Of a DNA stretch of 63,094 nucleotides, positions 2,098-59,632 are shown one piece after another. Source of the DNA: Chiloscyllium plagiosum (Eukaryota). The notes below the pieces were generated by a model. It saw only the letters and a program-made list of their open reading frames with translations. It was not told the DNA's origin and did no database searches. The stretch is from positions 18,330,488 to 18,393,581 of the forward strand of contig NC_057749.1 in assembly GCF_004010195.1 (NCBI RefSeq), given 5' to 3'. Every line of letters begins with the position of its first letter. The first letter of the stretch is position 1. A program made the translations under genes and the position numbers.

Positions 2098-3589
2098 GTA
2101 AGAACAGTGGTAGTTTTAAATGTTCTACAAAATCCCAGTGCAGTCAGGAGATTGCAGCTTGTTAACCTGATGTCCTAAGCAGAGATCTGGTTTGACAAAC
2201 CTCTTCTGTTTCAAGTAATGTGAAGCCAATTGCTTGATCCATTGTGTGTATCAGCCAGCCAGTGAGCAATGTCCTGAAATCTATTTAAGAGTCACCCTCC
2301 TTCTTCAAGACCCCTTACAGCATGGTTAGACCAAATTGTCAGCACTCTTCTATAATGACTGCTTTTTGTTGGGTTCACTTGCACATTTTTGTTTAACTTT
2401 GTTTGACTGTGATGAACATTCATTGGGGATGTTGATGCATGGAGACTGAATCTCTCCCAGTGAGAGGTACAAATAACTGGGTAGTGCATGCACTGTACAC
2501 AAGGTTACCATTTACCTGTTTATACTCCAGCTGCTCAAAGCAAGTTGAGACAACTAAAGAGTCAGCTTCATGATGCTGCATTGTTAACAAGTTTTTGAAA
2601 TTTCCTGATACTTGAATTACACTTCAAACGTTCAATCACCAGGTCCAGAGGGGCTCGGAGGTAGTACTGTAGTTATGTTTGACACTTAAATCCATCGGCT
2701 GCCTCTCTGTGAGGATGGTGCACCTTGCTGTCTATTGAAATGACTTGGGTTGGGATTTAGGTTTATTCTTGCAGTCTGTTGGAGAGTGCTGCTGTTTAGT
2801 GTCGCCTCTGTGCGAATTCTTAAGTGAGGGGGCTGATGTGTTGCAATTAGCCAGTAAGTGTTGGATTGCAAGTTTATCTGATTAGTCAGATTTATACTAC
2901 AGTGACTTGTTGCCACAGTCTTATATATGCTGTGAGTAAATCTAATTGCTTGAGTTGGGACTGAAAGAGAATCCAACTCATTTAACCTAATAGTGAATCC
3001 TACACCAGAAATATTAGTATGGAAATGGTGTTGAATGGGACTGAATTGAAAGGGCTGATTGCTTCTCTGTAGTGGTGCTGATAATGGTTTAATTGTGCTG
3101 CACTGTGTGCAACGTTGGATTCCTATGCCTTTGGTCAAAGCAGTACACAACATACAACCTGTGCTGAAAAGCTGCAGCCGGAGTGCTTGGAGATATTCAT
3201 TGAGCTGAGCAGCATCTGTGGCGAGATGAGAAGCGGTATTTTAGGGATGGGCCCTATCTCATCTGCTTCATTCGAGATTTGTGTGTAATTCCAGGGCTGG
3301 GATAAAATGCCCTTGGAGGGGTTGCTGAGGGGCTGAACAAAATGTTGCTGTGCAATTTTCTTGTCAGAACTGATATGCTGAATATTTAAAGCCTCATCTT
3401 TCCAGCATCTGACATTTTACCACCATCCTTTTCATGCTTTTGGACTGATCTGTACCTGGTTTGCAGATGATTGCTGGAATTTTATCCAGAGCCATTTGAA
3501 CAATTTTTGGGATCCTAGTTGCATACAGTTGCAATCCCTACCCTAGTTTGCTCAACCTTTTGTGAACTACAAGAGCAAAAGTCAGCCTA

Positions 3590-7332: not shown

Positions 7333-8048
7333 TTGACCAAGAAAGCCTGGCAGCATTTCTACCTTCTGTGCAGGCTGAGGAAAGCCCACCTCCTCCTCTT
7401 CACCCCCCCCATCCTCACCACATTCTACAGAGGGTTCATTGAGAGTACCCTGAGCTACTGCATCACTGCTTGGTTCAGGAATTGCACAGTCTCACATTGT
7501 AAGACCCTACAATGGATAGTGAGGACAGCGGAGAAGATCATCGAGGTCTCAGTACCCTCCATTACAGACAATGTAATAGAAAAATGCTAAATAATAGACA
7601 TTCTTCTAGCAGCAATTTGAAGTCATACAAAGAATTTCAGGTGGGAAAGAATCCAGTCATACAGTGGCTTCAGAGAAGAAACTGTTGCACAGTCTGACCG
7701 TCAGAGAGTGAATGCTCCCTGTAATGGAGGGTACTGAGACCTCGATGATCTTCTCCGCTGTCCTCACTATCCATTGTAGGGTCTTACAATGTGAGACTGT
7801 GCAATTCCTGAACCAAGCAGTGATGCAGTAGCTCAGGGTACTCTCAATGAACCCTCTGTAGAATGTGGTGAGGATGGGGGGGTGAAGAGGAGGAGGTGGG
7901 CTTTCCTCAGCCTTGAGTGTTTTGTACTTATGCATTTTATGCCGTGTATGGTGGTGTCCATGTAGCGCCCTCACTCCTGTAGAAACACTGTCTCGTTTTT
8001 ACTGTATCTGTTGTATATGGCAGAAATGACAAATAAAAGCTACTCTTT
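7333..8048 (+). mobile_element. Rex1/Babar-type LINE 3' fragment with an internal inverted duplication
   Basis: KKAWQHFYLLCRLRKA...ILTTFYRGFIESTLSYCITAWFRNC...LQWIVRTAEKII is the Rex1 RT C-terminus. 3' tail actgta...tgacaaataaaag at about 8000-8040. Confidence 0.85.
7372..7913. repeat. Near-perfect inverted repeat: arms 7372-7567 and 7719-7913, 151-nt spacer
   Basis: The arms read as reverse complements, differing by eye only in a C8 versus G7 run. The ORF track shows the same peptide on both strands. Confidence 0.95.
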
Positions 8049-13740: not shown

Positions 13741-14156
13741 AAAATGGGGTTAGGTTAGGTATTTGAATAAATTGTCTCTGAAAGTTAGATGTTACTTGAC
13801 TGACTTGCATAAAGTGTCAAGATTGTTATCATGGATGATTAACTTGTTTGGTCATTTCTGCCACTCCAATTCATGTCATCTGCTGTGAATTATTTCCGTT
13901 TGAAAGTATTTTATGGTTTAGATTGGAAATTGTTTTTAGCTCTGCCATTATTATTGCATGTCACAAGTTGGTTTGATGTAAAAATCTTTTGGTTCATTTT
14001 GTATGTTACTGGGCATTTGTCTATCCCTAGTTGCCGTTTGCAGTGTTAATTCTATAGTACTGTACCTGTAATTGCTTTCACAGTTGACTGATTGACAGAA
14101 CATTATTTAACTCTGTCGTGTGAACCAGAGGCATGTGTAGGTTAGAGAGGTGTAGC

Positions 14157-14387
14157 AAAAACAGAAGTTGCTGGAACGCTCAGCAGGTTTGGTAGCATTT
14201 ACGAAGAGAAATCAAAGTGAATGTTTTGGTCCAGTGGCCTTTTCTCAGTGTTCTGAGGAAGGGTCACCGGACATGAAATGTTAACTTTGGTTTCTCTTCA
14301 TTGATGCTGCCAAACCTGCTGAGCGTTTCCAGCAAATTCTGCTTTTGTTTCAGGTTGACAGCATCAGCAGTTCTTTGGGTTTTTATC
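14157..14387 (+). mobile_element. Fold-back PLE-derived element with a degenerate hammerhead-like core
   Basis: Two inverted arms meeting near 14250. ctgaggaagggtcaccggacatgaaatgtt core. cagcatc-gcag tail as in related copies. Confidence 0.7.
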
Positions 14388-15000
14388 GAGAGAAGTGTTG
14401 ATGTGACCCTGATGTTTCACCGTAGTATCCAGCCATTTCTTGAGAGTCCAATGTCCAGACATAACCGTGTCCTCCGAGACTTCCCTCTTTGTAAAGCAAT
14501 CTCTTCATTCCTACACTTCATCTTCCTCATGTCCTATGACCAAAATTAGTATTATTTTTTCCAGAAAGAGACTGACTAGACTGCATGATAATTTAAATAG
14601 AACTGATAATGTGCTTTGATCAATGCTCTGTTGCATTTATCCATATCAGATCCACAGACTCACTTTGGTGTCTACTCTTAAATTACTGTTCCGCACAAAT
14701 GGCAATTTTAACACCTACTAACAAGCACCATGTTTGGTTTTGTTTCGGCTATTCCTATTCTACATTTTCCCTTGATAATCACTCACTATCGGATTTTAGT
14801 GCTATGTCTTATCTGGGCTTTTGGAATATTTGGTACCATACACCTTATAAATTGAGTGTAATCAGCTTATGTCTAAATCTTTATCAGGTTACTTTACTAT
14901 TTATGCTGCAGTTTCTTTTCTGTTCAGAGCTCATTGGATTAAATTATAATTGAAGTATAAAATGCTCCAACCCTTCACATTAGGGGATGTAGAGGGGTTG

Positions 15001-15180
15001 AAAATGTGTTGCTGGAAAAGCGCAGCAGGTCAGGCAGCATCCAAGGAACAGGAGAATCGACGTTTCGGGCATAAGCCCTTCTTCTCCCCTGCTCCTTGGA
15101 TGCTGCCTGACCTGCTGCGCTTTTCCAGCAACACATTTTCAGCTCTGATCTCCAGCATCTGCAGTCCTCACTTTCTTCTC
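15001..15180 (+). mobile_element. Fold-back PLE-derived element
   Basis: Perfect 15-bp TSD GATGTAGAGGGGTTG (14986-15000 and 15181-15195). Inverted arms at about 15001-15052 and 15088-15139. Confidence 0.9.
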
Positions 15181-15195
15181 GATGTAGAGGGGTTG

Positions 15196-15760
15196 CCTTG
15201 GCATAGTGGCAATTTGACGAGACTAGCAATTCAGAACCCCAGGGCAATGTTCTGAGGATATGTGTTCAAGTGCCATCATGGTAACATTTTAATTGAAGAA
15301 AAATATCTGGAATGAAGAGAATAGGTGACCATGTGACCACAATCAATTGCTGTAAAAGGCCCACCTAGTTCACTCATGTCCTTTTGAGAAGGAAATCTGC
15401 TGCCTTTGCCTATCTGTGACCAATGTCTAGATTAGAGTGGTGCTGGAAAAGCACAGCAGGTCAGGCAGCATCCGAGGAGCAGGAGAATCGATGTTTTGGG
15501 CAAAAGTCCTTCATCAGGAGTGGAGCTGTGACCACTGTTAGCTGCTCCGATGTTCCACACAGGGCCGGTACCTGAATCAGGCCAGTGACTTCTGGTTCCA
15601 GACAATTGTTCTGTGCATGGGCCTCCGAGGCCTGCGCAGCCAGTAAGAAAATTAGAGGGAATGCTGCATGTGATTCCAGACTTTTAGCGACTCTTAAATG
15701 ATCTCTGGGCTATTAGGAATGGGCAATAATTGCCTATAATGCCCACATCTCCTAAAGGAC
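15196..15760 (+). mobile_element. tRNA-derived SINE with RTE-X-like tail, interrupted by insertions at about 15423-15665
   Basis: Same family motifs as 3862-4098. gggcaataattgcc...gcccacatc tail. Confidence 0.55.
15423..15525 (-). mobile_element. Single-arm PLE pseudo-LTR fragment with a decayed hammerhead-like core
   Basis: Minus strand cctgatgaaggacttttgcccaaaacatcg. 9-bp flanking direct repeat CTGTGACCA (15414-15422 and 15526-15534). Confidence 0.75.
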
Positions 15761-23824: not shown

Positions 23825-23883
23825 AGGTAAAAACAATGACTGCAGACTGCAGATTAGTGGTGCTGGACCACTAATCCAAAAAA
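23825..23883 (-). mobile_element. 59-nt collapsed remnant of the fold-back PLE family
   Basis: 14-bp TSD TGATGGTGTTTAGT (23811-23824 and 23884-23897). Tail is the reverse complement of 43623-43644 apart from a T-run length. gattagtggt/accactaatc mini-hairpin. Confidence 0.85.
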
Positions 23884-27487: not shown

Positions 27488-27561
27488 TGCTGAAACTGAG
27501 GATTGAACCAGGGGCCTTTTAGATCTTCAGTCTAGCCCTCTCCTAACTGAGCTATTTTGGC
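27488..27561 (-). pseudogene. tRNA-Phe(GAA) pseudogene
   Basis: Minus strand GCCAAAATAGCTCAGTTAGGAGAGGGCTAGACTGAAGATCTAAAAGGCCCCTGGTTCAATCCTCAGTTTCAGCA aligns end to end with vertebrate tRNA-Phe (about 10 substitutions, 1 insertion). Acceptor stem broken; no oligo-T terminator. Confidence 0.9.
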
Positions 27562-42902: not shown

Positions 42903-43403
42903 AACAAATAATCAAGAACATAACTATCTCTGTCTTTAAATACACTCAATGGCCTGGCCTCCACAGCCTTCTGCGGCAATGCATTCCATAGGTTCGCCAC
43001 CCTCTGGCTGAAGAAATTCCACTTCATCTCAGTTCTAAAGGGCTGTCATGTCACTCTGAGACTGTGCCCTTGGGTCCTAGTGTCTCCTTCTGATGGAAAT
43101 ATCTACTCCATGTCCATTCAGTATTCTGTAATTTTCAATCAGACCTCCCTTCATCATTCTAAGCTCCCATTGAGCACAGACCCAGAGTCCTCAACTAATT
43201 CTCCTTCATCCCCAGATTTGTTGTTGTAAACCTCCTCTGGATCTCCTTCAACACCAGCACATCCATCCTTGGATATGGCCCTCAACACTGCTCACAATAT
43301 TCCAGATGCAGACTGACCAAAGCCTTATACAGCCTCAGCAGTACATCTCTGCTGTTTTGGCCCTCTTGCAGTAGATGCTACCATTGCATTTGCCTTCCTA
43401 ACT

Positions 43404-43644
43404 CTGGATTAGTGGTGCTGGAGGAGCACAGCAGTTCAGGCAGCATCTGAGGAGCAGTAAAATCGACGTTTCGGGCGTCACTTATCTCTCCACTCTTCAG
43501 GCTCTCTGCCTGTATTCCTGATGAAGGGCTTTTGCCCGAAACGTCGATTTTACTGTTCCTTGGATGCTGCCTGAACTGCTGTGCTCCTCCAGCACCACTA
43601 ATCCAGAATCTGGTTTCCAGCATCTGCAGTCATTGTTTTTTACC
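43404..43644 (+). mobile_element. Fold-back PLE-derived element with the best-preserved hammerhead-like core (43518-43545)
   Basis: Perfect 15-bp TSD TTTGCCTTCCTAACT (43389-43403 and 43645-43659). Inverted arms at about 43404-43476 and 43534-43606. CTGATGA-A-GGGC-TTTT-GCCC-GAAA-CGTC. Confidence 0.9.
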
Positions 43645-43847
43645 TTTGCCTTCCTAACTGCCAACTGAAAATTCATGTTAGAGAATCCTGAACTAGAACT
43701 CCCAAGTCCTTTTGTGCTTCAGATTTCCAAGCCTTTCCCCATTTAAAGTTGCCTACACTTCTGTTCTTTCTACCAAGGTTGGGTGAACTGGTCTATAATT
43801 TCCTGTCTTCTGCCTCTAGCCCTTTTTAAACAGGAGTGTTACATTTT

Positions 43848-45420
43848 GGATGTAGGTTTGCTCACTGAGCTGGAAGGTTCATTTCCAGATTTTGTTACCC
43901 TGCTAGCTAACATCTTCAGTGGGCCTCAGGCAAAGCATGCTGAAAATTCCTGCTTTCTATTTATATGTCTGGGTTTCTTTGGGTTAGTGATGTCATTTCC
44001 TGTGGTAAAGTCACTTCCTGTTCCTTTTCTCAGGGGGTGGTAGATGGGGTCTAATTCGATGTGTTTGTTGATAGATTAGATTCCCTACAGCGTGGAAACA
44101 GGCCCTTCGGCCCAACCAGTCCACACCGACACTCCGAAGAGTAACCCACACACACCCATCCCCCTCTGACTAATGCACCTAACACTATGGACAATTTAGC
44201 ATGGCCAATTTACCTGACCTGCACATCTTTGGACTGTGGGAGGAAACTGGAGCACCCGGAGGAACCCCACACAGACACGGGGAGAATGTGCAAACTCCAC
44301 ACAGACAGTTGCCCAAGGCTGGAATTGAACCTGGGATCCTGGTGCTGTGAGGCAGCAGTGCTAACCACTGAGCCACCGTGCCCTCCCCTGGTTGGAATGC
44401 CATGCTTCTATGAATTCTCGTGCGTGTCTTTGTTTGGCTTGTCCTAGGATGGATGTGTTGTCCCAGTCAAAGTGGTGTCCTTCCTTACCTGTATGTAAGG
44501 GATTAGTGAGAGAGGGTCATGTCGTTTTGTGGCTAGTTGATGTTCATGTATCCTGGTGGCTAGTTTTCTGCCTGTTTGTCCAATATAGTGTTTGTTACAG
44601 TCCTTGCATGATATTTTGTAAATGACATTAGTTTTGCTTGTTGTCTGTATAGGGTCTTTCAAGTTCATTAGCTGCTGTTTTAGTGTGTTGGTGGGTCTGT
44701 GGGCTACCATGATGCCAAGGGGTCTGAGTAGTCTGGCAGTCATTTCTGAGATGTCTTTGATGTAGGGGAGAGTGGCTAGGGTTTCTGGATGCGTTTTGTC
44801 TGCTTGTTTGGGTTTGTTGCTGAGAAATCGGCGGACTGTGTTCATTGGGTACCCATTCTTTTTGAATACATGTTATAGATGATATTCCTCTGCTCTGCAT
44901 AGTTCCTCTGTGCTGCAGTGTGTGTTGGCTCATTGAAGTAATGTTTTGATGCAGCTACGTTTGTGGGTGTTGGGATGATTGCTTCTGTAGTTCAATATTT
45001 GGTCCCTATTTATTGTTTTTCTGTAGACGCTGGTTTGAAGTTCCCTGTTGGTTGTTCACTCTACTGTGACATCTAGGAATGGCAGTTTGTTGTTGTTTTC
45101 CTCTTTAGTGAATTTTATGCCAGTCAGGGCATTATTGATGGTCTTGAAGGTTTCTTCTAACTTGTTTCGTTTAGTGATGACAAAGATGTCATCCACGCAG
45201 CGGGCCCAGAGTTTGGGTTGGATGGTTGGCAGAGCTGTTTGCTCAAGTCTCTGCATTACTGCCTCTGCTAAGAACCCTGATATCAAAGATCCCATGGGTG
45301 TTCCGTTGATTTTGTTGTTGAAGGTGAAGAGGGTGGTAATACATAGGTCGACTACCTTGATGATATTCTCCTTGTTGATGAAGTTAGTGGTGTTTGGTGT
45401 ATGTGTCTTTGGATCTTCTC
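43848..45420 (-). mobile_element. Penelope-like element (RT, GIY-YIG and pseudo-LTR), 5'-truncated, with an HE1 insertion
   Basis: PMGSLISG...WARCVDDIFVI...KLPFLDV (RT) and NVIYKISCKDCNKHYIGQTGRKLATRIHEH (GIY-YIG). The pLTR hammerhead core is decayed (GAAA to AAAA). Confidence 0.92.
44074..44382 (-). mobile_element. HE1-type V-SINE inserted in the Penelope element
   Basis: Full head ggcacggtggctcagtggttagc, V-domain and (aatct)n tail. Confidence 0.92.
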
Positions 45421-51306: not shown

Positions 51307-52182
51307 TGCTGGAAGAAGCTCAGCAGCATCCGAGGAGCAGGAGAGTCGATGTTTCTGGCATAAGCCCTTCATCAGGAATGTGGAGGGGCAAGGGGAATGA
51401 GAGATAAATAGAAAGGTGGGAGTGGGGCTGGGGTGAGGGGGGTGTGTTGGGGGAAGGGGGGGAAGGTAGGTGGATGCAAGGGGGAGGTGATTTTGGTAGG
51501 TTGATGGGAAGGAAGGTGGACAGATAGGTCAGGTCAAGAGGGCGGTGTCAAGTCAGAGGGTTGGATCTGGGATGAGGTGGGGTTTGGGGAGATTTGGAAA
51601 CTGGTGAAGTCAGTGTTGATGCTATGTGGTTGTAGGGTCCCGAAATGGAAGGTAAGGGGGTAACCTTTTCACGCAGAAGACCGTGCATGTATGGTAGGAG
51701 CTGCCAGAGGAAGTGGTGGAGGCAATTATAATTACAGTATTTAAAAGGCATCTGGTTGGTTCTATAAATAGGAATGATTTTGAGCGATATGGGGCCAAGT
51801 GCTGGCAAGTGGGATTAGGTCAGATCGGAACATCTGGTAGGCATGGACAAGATGGACTAAGGGTCTGTTTCCGTGGTGTATGATTCAATGACTATGACTC
51901 AAGCATTCACTCAATGCCCACCTCCTGCCCCGCCACCCTACAACCACATGGCATCAACATTGACCTCACCAGTTTCCAAATCTCTCNNNNNNNNNNCCCA
52001 TCCCAACCCCACTCCCATATTTATCTCTCATCCCCCTTTCCCCCCTCCACGTTCCTGATGAAGGGCTTATGCCTGAAATGATGGCTCTCCTGCTCCTCGG
52101 ATGCTGCCTGACCTGCTGAGCATTTTCCAGCATCACACTTTTTTGACTCTGACTCTCCAGCGTCTACAGTTCTCACTTTCTC
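51307..52182 (+). mobile_element. Long fold-back PLE-derived element with a CR1 fragment in its loop; contains a 10-N assembly gap (51987-51996)
   Basis: 13-bp TSD CTGA(G/T)CAGTGAGA (51294-51306 and 52183-52195). Arms at about 51307-51640 and 51933-52135. cctgatgaagggcttatgcctgaaatg core. Confidence 0.8.
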
Positions 52183-52245
52183 CTGATCAGTGAGAACTCC
52201 ACCTAAGAACATGACAGCAGCTGATTCTACCATGAATTGGTTGGT

Positions 52246-53150
52246 TGCTTGAGTCATAGTCATTGAATCATACAGCATGGAAACAGATCTTGGTCCATCT
52301 TGTCCATGCTGACCAGATGTTCCAATCTGACTTAGTCCCATTTGCCAGCAGTTAGCCAATATCCCTCAAAGTCCTTCCTATTTAGAGACCCATTCAGATG
52401 CCTTTTAAATTCCCTCGGGCAGCTCTTACCATTCACGCACAACCCTCTGCGTGAAAATGTTACCCCTCGGGTCCTTTTTAAATCTTTTCCCTCTCACCTT
52501 AAACCTATGCCGTCTCGTTTTGGATTCCCTTACCCGAGGAAAAAGACCTTGGCTATTCACCCTATGCATCCCCTTATCATTTTATTAACCTCTAGAAGGT
52601 CACCCCTCAGCCTCCGATGCTCCAGGGAGAACAGCCCCAGCCTGTTCAGCTTCTACCTATCGCTCAAACCCTTCAGCCTTGGCAACATCCTTGTAAATCG
52701 TTTTTGCACCCTCTCAAGTTAACAACATCCATCCTGTAGAAGGGAAACCAGAATTGTATGCAGTGTTCTAAAAGTAGACACACCAGTGTCCTGAATATTC
52801 GCAATATGACATCCAAACTCCTACACTCAATGTTCTGACCAATGAAGGCAAAGTGCTGTCTTTACCACACTGTCTACCTGCAACACCCACTTTCAAGGAA
52901 CTGTACACCTGCATTCCTGGGTCTCTTTGCTCAGCAACACTCCCCAGGGCCCCACCATTAACTGTATAAAACCTGCCCTGATTTGCCTTGCCAAAATGCA
53001 ACACCTCACATTTATCAAAATTAAACTCCATCTGCCACTCTTTGGCCCATTGGTCCATCTGATCATGGTCCCGTTCTACTCCGAGATAATCTTCTTCGCT
53101 GTAGATTATAACTATTTTGGTGTCATCTGCAAACTTACTAACCATGCCTT
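52246..53150 (-). mobile_element. CR1/HER1 LINE RT to 3' end
   Basis: MVSKFADDTKI...QMDQWAKEWQMEFNFDKCEVLHFG. (gactat)n tail. Confidence 0.9.
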
Positions 53151-53200
53151 CTATATTTGAGACTCCAGTCCATTTCTTTCATTCATCAACAATATCATAT

Positions 53201-55272: not shown

Positions 55273-56381
55273 CCAATCCCTTCCCAAATCTGTCTCTTGA
55301 ATTCCTGAGATCAGTGTGTGAATCAATTTTCAAGTTATTTGCCGGAGGAGGGAGCGCCCTGATATTTAACAGGGTGGACTAATTGGAGGGAGGGAGGTAA
55401 GGCAGAGATTGTGGTGGAGGGATCAGATAAGGGAAGCTCAGCTCATTGAGTGCAAAAATATGTGACTGATGGCGGAAGTTCTGCTTGGTTGATAACAGTA
55501 GTTATAGCCAAGATAGAAGATTTGTCACTCCAACCATCAGTAAGTTGGGTTAGATTTCAAATTGTGGAAGTTCTGTCATCTCTCTTTCTCTTTCTATTAT
55601 TCACTGCTCCTTTCACTCCCCATGTGACCCTTGCCCATTCCATCCTACATTCCTGCGCACCCCCCCATCCCGTTTCCTGTGGTCTTGGAGTAAAAGCTGG
55701 TTGGACGAAGTGTACTGCTTTGGTTTAGCAAGACCATAGCAAATTCACAGGTCTGACTGACAAGGGTATCACATATTCCATACAGGCAGCTCCCTGGGGC
55801 ATGATGTTGAATGCTCCCTGATGTACGGAGTATCATAAGTTGCTTGTTCTGCCACCCTTTTCCGTATTTCCTACAATCTTTTCCTGCACTCCTCACAGCA
55901 GCAGCAAAAGATCACTGCCGTCTGATATAGTTATCATCTGTTCCAGCTGTATCATTTTCCCTTCACCAGTCAGTCAAAAAGTTACTGGCAGTGTGTCAAC
56001 TCTGACTAGCAGGAAGCCCTGAGGTATGATACTTATCCCCTGTACTCAATTCCACTTGCTGTTATCATCTCCATTGCTTTTAGACTGCAAGAATAAGGAT
56101 GGATGAATAGAAGTCTTGTGACCAATAGCATAATTTCTCTCCAAGTTGCCTGCTGAGTATGGACTGCCAGTCTGATCTCAGGGACTTGTTGAGCAGAGTT
56201 GATGCCTGGAACTCTGAACATCATAAGCAGCGTAGGCGATTTAGGTTTACTGATTTGTGATGGTGTTGCAGGGTGGAGAGGGAGGCAGGGTCCAATTTCA
56301 GGCTAATAATTCTCTTCACTATCAAACCAGTGACAGTGGCTGGCTGACTGGAAGGGAGGGACATGATTCATAGAATAAATA

Positions 56382-56545
56382 CAAAGAACTTGGGATGTTG
56401 TAAATCTGAAACAAAAGCAGAGTGCTGTGTGAAACTCAGCCAGTCACACAGCATCTGTACAGAGAAAACAGTGACTCTTCATCAGAACATCCTGACTCAA
56501 AATTAACTGGCAGACCTGCTGTGTTTCCCTCGCATTTTGTTTTTG
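56382..56545 (-). mobile_element. Degenerate fold-back PLE-derived element
   Basis: caaaagcagagtgctg...cagcatctg and cttcatcag (CTGATGAAG on the minus strand), then the inverted arm cagacctgctgtgtttcc...ttttgtttttg. Confidence 0.55.
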
Positions 56546-57095
56546 TGTCATGGTTCGTCAAATTGTTTTGAGTAGGGGTGTGATGTTTCAATAACTTGGA
56601 TAGGGGATTTCAGGGAAAAGTATGTGAATGTTTGCATTCTTGCCAGTTATCAGTTCATTGTTAAGTAGTGAAACCTGTCTTCAAATCGCTGTGTGGAGGT
56701 CTGAAGTCAATCAGACTTTAAAACAGCAACACAGAAGTTTTAGGTTTTAGGCAGATAAAAATAGATACATTTATGTCACAACTTTTATGACCCAGAGCAT
56801 CCTGAGGTGTTATGACCAAACACGCCAGTATGATTTTATCTATTTTCCAAAGCGGTCTCTGAGATTGGCAATGGTGTGAAATTAAGTGCTGTTTTTGGTG
56901 TCGCCCTTGCCCAAGAGAAACTGGGATAACACTCTCTGAATCCATTTCACAACTAGCTGTTTGTGTCCAGCATTCCAATCCCGATCTTAGTGGTAAATAG
57001 AAGGTAAAATTGCTACAGTCTTACCAGACCCATCCCCCCCTCATTAGAGAGAATCGTGGGTTAACCTAAGGGTCACCACACTTCAGGCGAGGGGA

Positions 57096-59424: not shown

Positions 59425-59632
59425 GGAGAAAGTGAGGACTGCAGATGCTGGTGATCAGAATCGAAGAGTGTGGTGCTGGAAAAGCACAGCCGGTCAGGCA
59501 GCAACCGAGGAGCAGGAGAATCGATGTTTCGTGCATAAGCCCTTCAAAGGAATCATGCCTGATGAAGGGCTTATGCTTGAAATGTTGATTCTCCTGCTCC
59601 TCAGGTGCTTTTCCCGCACCATTCTCTCGACT
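59425..59632 (-). mobile_element. Fold-back PLE-derived element
   Basis: 12-bp TSD TTGTCAG(C/G)ACTG (59413-59424 and 59633-59644). Inverted arms. ctgatgaagggcttatgcttgaaatgtt at 59559. Confidence 0.85.

Follow-up and report, generated by a model that had tools for sequence, protein, structure and literature searches.

A stretch of 63,094 nucleotides from Chiloscyllium plagiosum (contig NC_057749.1, positions 18,330,488 to 18,393,581; hereafter the window) contains short fold-back inserts, described as carrying a hammerhead-like core and its antisense. Two readings of such inserts were put forward in an earlier note made from the sequence alone: that they are extreme truncations of a Penelope-like element (PLE), or that they form a self-propagating, retrozyme-like family in which the antisense arm sequesters the ribozyme and acts as a folding switch. 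Which of the two does the locus favor, and how would inserts of this shape arise?

Eight related inserts and their ends

Membership in the family was assessed with a profile built from 12 arms of seven inserts. In the window the profile recovered its 12 arms, the second arm of the insert at 56382 (E 0.12) and one weak relic, and it gave no match in one shuffled window; the insert at 23825 was placed in the family by BLAST and alignment. The initial count of at least eight related inserts (at 14157, 15001, 15423, 23825, 43404, 51307, 56382 and 59425) was thus borne out, all eight being members by profile, BLAST or alignment (Table 1). Two of them, 14157 and 56382, form a separate subfamily that is about 75-80% like the other inserts. 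The relic, at 3208-3260 on the minus strand, is decayed (E 0.023) and perhaps belongs to a further subfamily. Throughout, the C of CTGATGA is numbered +1.

Table 1. Positions in the window of the fold-back inserts and of the parts of the 43404 copy
Feature	Positions	Strand	Remarks
Left target-site duplication (TSD), 43404 copy	43389-43403		15 bp
Right TSD, 43404 copy	43645-43659		15 bp
Short tail-less inverted arm, 43404 copy	43404-43476	-	PLE 3' end, about +17 to +89
Long sense arm, 43404 copy	43477-43644	+	PLE 3' end, about -41 to +127
Unpaired tail, 37 nt, 43404 copy	43608-43644	+	predicted fold; depth drop of ~35-fold past 43640 (DNA runs)
Minimal type I hammerhead core, 43404 copy	43518-43545	+	predicted cut after 43545
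Older fold-back copy, second subfamily (14157 insert)	14154-14388	+	junction about -2 / -8; decayed TSD
Fold-back copy	15001-15180	+	junction +3 / about +32; exact 15-bp TSD
Single tail-less arm	15423-15525	-	starts at -8; exact 9-bp TSD
Smallest fold-back copy	23825-23883	-	junction +71 / +77; no hammerhead; exact 14-bp TSD
Short arm of the longest copy (51307)	51307-51656	-	reaches -280
Long arm of the 51307 copy	51935-52183	+	starts within the end of the endonuclease ORF, at -263 in short-arm numbering
Decayed fold-back, second subfamily (56382 insert)	56378-56549	-	long arm 56495-56378 from about -9; short arm 56507-56549, inner end about +55
Fold-back copy	59425-59632	-	junction about -4 / -5; 12-bp TSD with one mismatch

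The inserts had been described as non-coding and 59-880 nt long. Seven of the eight measure 59-240 nt; it is the 51307 copy that departs from the description on both counts. Coding sequence, from the end of an endonuclease ORF, is found in both its arms, and its 880 nt, which include a 10-N assembly gap in the long arm (51987-51996), overstate the size of the element because the loop holds a piece of about 260 nt from an unrelated LINE-like repeat. This piece (51657-51915) matches the 3' end of an RT-bearing LINE-like element at 52246-53178, relative to which it is inverted, and we take it to be CR1-like.

TSDs of 9-15 bp had been claimed for six inserts. Four of them are exact (43404, 15001, 23825 and 15423), and the remaining two, of 13 bp at 51307 and 12 bp at 59425, stand only with one mismatch; six of the eight inserts thus lie between duplications of variable length, as is the rule for PLE insertions. 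The TSD of 14157 is at best decayed (9/10), and no convincing one was found at 56382. Exact repeats of at least 9 bp flanked 2 of 300 random intervals, and repeats of at least 14 bp none. The plan proposed for most inserts, with an inverted arm, a sense arm and a tail, describes seven of them, in which an inverted 5'-truncated copy lies beside a sense copy, but not 15423, which has a single arm.

In the 43404 copy the two 15-bp TSDs match exactly, and its arms, at 43403-43476 and 43534-43607, show 96% complementarity across 74 nt. A tail is found at one end only and, at 37 nt, falls within the 30-40 nt expected of PLEs. The short arm lacks the 5' half of the hammerhead. The long arm begins in a pyrimidine-rich 3' UTR, and paralogous contigs extend upstream of 43478 into further UTR. 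The RNA is predicted to fold at -167.6 kcal/mol (z -20.5), a stability equaled by none of 200 shuffled sequences.

All copies were made from one sense sequence, with outer ends that are roughly fixed and inner ends that vary (Table 1; inner positions are approximate for the decayed copies 14157 and 56382). The tail-less arms end near +90 (at +77 in the decayed 51307 arm) and the tailed arms near +127, and the inner junctions differ in all seven two-armed inserts. Within the 43404, 15001 and 14157 copies the arms agree at 54/57, 53/55 and 51/58 positions, respectively, and private variants are common to both arms; between the 43404 and 15001 copies identity is 38-41/46, below that of each arm with its own partner. 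Judged by these identities, both arms of each of the three copies come from one source subfamily. In 51307 and 59425, which are old copies, an arm resembles its partner no more than it resembles the arms of other copies.

Inverted arms between TSDs, together with the short size, are what MITE-like DNA transposons or assembly artefacts would also present. The TSDs, however, vary from 9 to 15 bp, the arms are asymmetric with the tail on one side, the sequence is that of a retroelement 3' end, and the arms differ by 3-12%, unlike those of a fold-back artefact. The asymmetric ends and the link to an ORF described below refute this explanation, to which we give practically no credence.

Three further features of the window were recorded. 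An inverted repeat of about 196 bp (7372-7567 and 7719-7913, with a 151-nt spacer) is 100% complementary in two stretches; it lies in what we take to be LINE-like DNA and may reflect a recent inversion, conversion or an assembly artefact. A tRNA-like match on the minus strand at 27488-27561, under the Rfam gathering score (26.8 bits), is probably the head of a SINE. Finally, an exon-like open frame on the plus strand at 1264-2127 has no Pfam match and, we assume, resembles the first coding exon of ZNF608/609. If it is that exon, the inserts may be intronic, and the 43404 core would then have the sense orientation.

Probable relation to a Neptune-type Penelope-like element

In the 51307 copy, each arm continues into the final codons of a GIY-YIG endonuclease ORF, whose C-terminal end lies at 51656-51540. 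A 41-aa frame at 51659-51537 served as the query for protein searches. A word-index search with this frame gave no match, and a full HMMER search gave three, two of which were whale-shark protein fragments (P0001, E 2e-5; P0003, E 4e-4). The third, P0002, is an unrelated bacterial repeat protein and was set aside as matched by chance. A search with P0003 yielded 15 proteins out of 78 candidates. When five of the 15 were scanned for domains, P0004 showed RVT_1 and GIY-YIG and P0014 showed RVT_1, the GIY-YIG match of P0005 fell below the cut-off, and two proteins showed none.

P0004, a whale-shark protein with both RT and endonuclease, matches 51656-51540 at 64% identity (E 6e-10) and also matches from 51935 onward. 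Compared by eye with Fig. S2 of PMC8557442, it has a CX4CxxC linker between the RT and a C-terminal endonuclease, and P0005 has a disrupted version of this linker; the figure shows the layout of a CX2-5CxxC linker with a C-terminal endonuclease as common to Neptune and Nematis. The endonuclease end of P0004 resembles, again by eye, the Neptune1_Nv row and less so the Poseidon or Nematis rows. P0005, a zebra-shark prediction, reads through RT, endonuclease and UTR and ends on a translated hammerhead: its last 22 residues align on 43494-43559 (13/22, E 0.23), a match that is weak alone and falls in the expected place.

As read from these alignments, the inserts represent the 3' end of a PLE, consisting of the end of the ORF, about 200 nt of UTR, the minimal hammerhead and the tail. 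We assign the element to the Neptune type by its linker layout and the by-eye likeness of its endonuclease, not by an RT tree; the source element itself is known here from the 3' ends of inserts and from shark protein predictions alone. With the longest copy entering a Neptune-type endonuclease ORF, all seven junctions different and no joint common among the best 15 of 646 in three species, the description of the inserts as extreme PLE truncations is supported. The inserts are real and abundant, and we consider it highly probable that they are an ordinary product of retrotransposition by a Neptune-type PLE.

Another PLE lies 230 bp away, at 43860-45420. We weighed it as a possible parent and discarded that idea: BLAST gave no match between its 3' end and the fold-back family, its endonuclease does not align with P0003, and the element is only 23-24% like P0004 and P0005. 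It stands for a second PLE family in the window, seen as a broken RT and GIY-YIG ORF on the minus strand at 43860-45420 and also at 174-387 on the plus strand, with a hammerhead of its own, of which the copy at 314 is intact and that at about 43918 is decayed. We take this neighbor to be Poseidon-like, and it is presumably a SINE-like insert that interrupts it near 44090-44390.

The hammerhead core and the antisense arm

The core of the 43404 copy was confirmed as first described, both in its sequence (CTGATGA-A-GGGC-TTTT-GCCC-GAAA-CGTC) and in its stem I of about 2 bp: a C-G and a U-A pair are followed by a U.U mismatch, short of a helix I of at least 4 bp. The core has the marks of a PLE minimal hammerhead, namely CUGANGA, an extra base after A9, the G10.1-C11.1 pair, GAAA, a palindromic 15.2-16.2 and UH. 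Three of the 15 arms pass a scan for core plus stem II, and GAAACGUC is kept only at 43518. An Rfam scan of the window found no hammerhead family, which for a minimal motif is not evidence either way; it gave 10 matches at E up to 1, none at the gathering score, seven of them microRNA models on hairpins.

The antisense arm of the 43404 copy spans no more of the hammerhead than its 3' half (+17 onward), and CTGATGA lies outside it. In the predicted fold without this arm stem II forms, whereas in its presence other pairings take up the 3' strand of stem II as well as GAAA and the cut site. The part of the folding-switch proposal in which the antisense arm sequesters the ribozyme therefore agrees with the predicted fold, but the switch does not: the hairpin is more than 10 times as stable as the core region alone (-12.5 kcal/mol), and on the plus strand the antisense arm is transcribed first, so the arm would be a lock and not a switch. 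In this model the ribozyme is predicted to stay permanently locked by the fold-back arm. A predicted dimer fold of the core region (-26.8 kcal/mol) is about twice as stable as the monomer and is uninformative.

These folds bear on the possibility that the family is a self-propagating retrozyme-like unit, whose hairpin RNA would be processed by the hammerhead and circularised, the antisense arm serving as a folding switch. The 43404 copy does have an intact core and a stable hairpin, but with the antisense arm made first and energies of -167.6 against -12.5 kcal/mol no second state is plausible; moreover, only the three arms mentioned above pass the core-plus-stem-II scan and the smallest copy is devoid of a hammerhead. 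Single minimal hammerheads are described as uncleaved in vitro, and their dimers as cleaved little (PMC4209133). Nor is there a unit of defined length: one low-depth junction recurs in three organisms (see below), yet all seven junctions in the window differ and no joint is common among the best 15 of 646. Animal retrozymes are tandem (PMC7229834), and none of the 10 tandem-repeat rows in the window involves the inserts. Having no head-to-tail arrays in the window, a minimal stem I and arms that are closest to their own partners, the inserts do not behave as the retrozyme-like family suggested in the earlier note; that reading is already largely refuted, and we regard it as very improbable.

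Arm ends in three organisms and a proposed route of insertion

Four of 24 listed sequencing runs were used, three of DNA type and one of RNA. Contigs from the DNA-type runs of three organisms (X1, X9 and X10) were matched to 43260-43800 at 85% likeness, which gave 61,050, 63,682 and 64,495 contig pieces, respectively, a few of them on the flanks. The flanks of the insert (43279-43354 and 43678-43734) are themselves repeats (depth about 45,000 in X1). Where the short arm has its outer end, depth drops about 10-fold (7- to 16-fold), and beyond 43640 it drops about 35-fold; we therefore conclude that both outer ends are fixed.

The three DNA runs gave 646 listed joints and 588 listed junction fill-ins, in a survey where contigs break inside repeats, the X1 joint count is partial and several joints reflect the divergence of subfamilies. 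Of the best 15 of the 646 joints, 7 skip the insert and 8 link arms. The source of the 7 insert-skipping joints is probably paralogues, the flanks being repeat. The deepest of the 15 reaches a depth of 553, against bin depths in the millions, and neither a common joint nor a large family with a shared junction was found among these 15 in the three species. One arm-to-arm joint, 43476 to 43517, recurs across the three runs, although its depth is low (288, 64 and 5).

The 5' ends of 7 of the 15 arms in the window lie between -10 and +3. In all three DNA runs the largest pile of loose ends is found just before 43514 (736, 783 and 736 contigs); agreement among these ends is 0.33, with the last four letters common, and the pile matches the 7 window arms. 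Part of it may come from subfamilies with another UTR. The breakpoints are thus not wholly random, since 5' ends cluster just upstream of the hammerhead core. Whether inversion breakpoints are shared or unique had been proposed as the deciding observation. All seven differ in the window; the 5' ends nevertheless pile up upstream of the core, and one low-depth joint recurs in three runs. Cleavage by the hammerhead was considered as the cause of the 5' ends and set aside, only 1 of the 15 arms (the long arm of 15001, at about +32) starting near the predicted cut at +29; no pile was seen at the predicted cut among the loose ends listed.

An RNA run (X21; poly(A) single-cell, 2% read, of a type unsuited to cleavage or circles) gave 2,056 reads on both strands, 98% of which continue into unlike sequence and 40 of which have at least 99% identity. 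No spot at which many molecules start or stop was seen in this poly(A) library, a type in which neither cleavage nor circles would be expected to register. Over 43260-43800, A>G and T>C differences occur at 31 and 36 places in X21, as against 9-13 and 18-21 in the DNA runs, and C>T and G>A are not raised. A-to-I editing in the hairpins could leave such a pattern, but several kinds of transversion are likewise raised about twofold, and the reads stem from many loci and from a different individual.

Each insert is, in all likelihood, a dead-on-arrival product of retrotransposition by an autonomous Neptune-type PLE. We propose that the RT-endonuclease would nick both target strands 9-15 nt apart and that each nick would prime one cDNA on the element RNA. 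One cDNA, from a distal start (+127), would give the long arm with its tail, and the other, from a proximal start (+90), the short arm; both would stop early and join head to head, leaving a hairpin between TSDs. The orientations of the arms fit the two-nick model because the cDNA strand of each arm begins at a target 3' end. The model is carried over, by analogy, from a lizard Poseidon element, whose protein is described as cutting and extending both target strands, with reverse transcription from two internal sites, a tail equal to the distance between them, and hammerhead mutants that do not impair insertion (PMC11167929). A published alternative (PMC3846280) invokes self-priming on an antisense template, and the present data do not separate the two. 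Under two-nick priming the hammerhead would be a passenger, which the fold-back would lock off in host RNA.

Many cDNAs would then stop no more than about 10 nt upstream of the core, which is simplest to explain if the commonest template RNA starts there, and the longer arms would derive from read-through RNA. In Penelope an internal promoter in the pLTR drives transcription (PMC2377424), and run-off to the 5' end of such an RNA could explain the pile-up near -8. A different origin would be a short non-autonomous, SINE-like RNA (about -8 to +127), split from the PLE, with its own transcription and copied in trans, for which fold-backs would be the usual form of insertion. It would account for the pile-up, both in the 7 of 15 window arms and in the loose ends before 43514 in three runs, and for 15423, which starts at -8 directly abutting its TSD; pLTR sequences alone are described as movable in trans (PMC3846280), and non-autonomous PLE derivatives exist (PMC8557442; bioRxiv 10.64898/2026.07.22.740005). 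The same pile-up is predicted, however, if transcription of the full element begins in its pLTR (PMC2377424), the same subfamilies give arms reaching -41 and -280 into UTR and ORF, and no unique sequence sets the short copies apart. We consider a SINE-like RNA decidedly unlikely.

A wider proposal is that the pile-up about 8 nt upstream of the hammerhead marks either a short separate non-autonomous RNA or a strong-stop-like run-off, copied twice per insertion from both nicked strands, which would have given shark genomes tens of thousands of PLE-made hairpins. We advance it as doubtful. If true, the hairpins would record two-strand priming by PLEs at base resolution, and they might be a source of double-stranded RNA that is edited within host transcripts. 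Two-strand priming and the start of the template RNA are steps still unproven in vivo for PLEs, and counting alone, over tens of thousands of inserts that have two arms and clean TSDs, could put both to the test.

Taken as a whole, the literature on PLEs already describes the architecture, the tail and the minimal hammerhead, so that the value of the family lies mainly in its use as a resource, and the main point still worth counting is the pile-up of 5' ends beside the hammerhead. We found no literature report of shark fold-back PLE ends; most subscription journals and Repbase lay outside the scope of this search, and the family may well be catalogued. Four DNA pattern scans of genome, viral and metagenome collections gave no matches, as expected for an animal repeat. 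An inverted 5'-truncated copy with a 30-40-bp tail is given as typical of PLEs (PMC8557442), and a PLE insertion with a 9-bp TSD, an inverted pLTR and a 31-bp tail has been described (PMC3846280). The inserts share with insertions of the endonuclease-positive Neptune clade the 5'-truncation, the inverted copy, the tail of 30-40 nt and a TSD of about 8-15 bp (PMC8557442; PMC3846280; PMC11167929), as well as a hammerhead near the 3' end and, in the shark relatives, RT, CX4CxxC linker and C-terminal GIY-YIG. They differ from the Neptune insertions described in these sources in their very high copy number, their extreme shortness and the 5'-end pile-up by the hammerhead.

The core resembles the minimal hammerheads of metazoan PLEs (Cervera and De la Pena 2014, PMC4209133) in the extra nucleotide between A9 and G10.1, in the G10.1-C11.1 pair and in having, in place of a helix III, a palindromic CG. 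As in that account, single motifs are dispersed and others occur as pairs on opposite strands; pairs 100-700 bp apart were already read there as truncated PLEs. In comparison with the Schistosoma motifs, stem II has 4 bp here versus 7-8, and stem I about 2 bp versus 4-5 (PMC4209133). Animal non-LTR retrozymes are likewise short and non-coding, with a type I hammerhead and a relation to the PLE pLTR (PMC7229834; bioRxiv 10.64898/2026.07.22.740005). Retrozymes, however, are described as tandem, with units joined head to tail, hammerheads that are mostly canonical, and circular RNAs (PMC7229834), whereas the fold-back inserts are joined head to head, vary in length and often lack a whole core.
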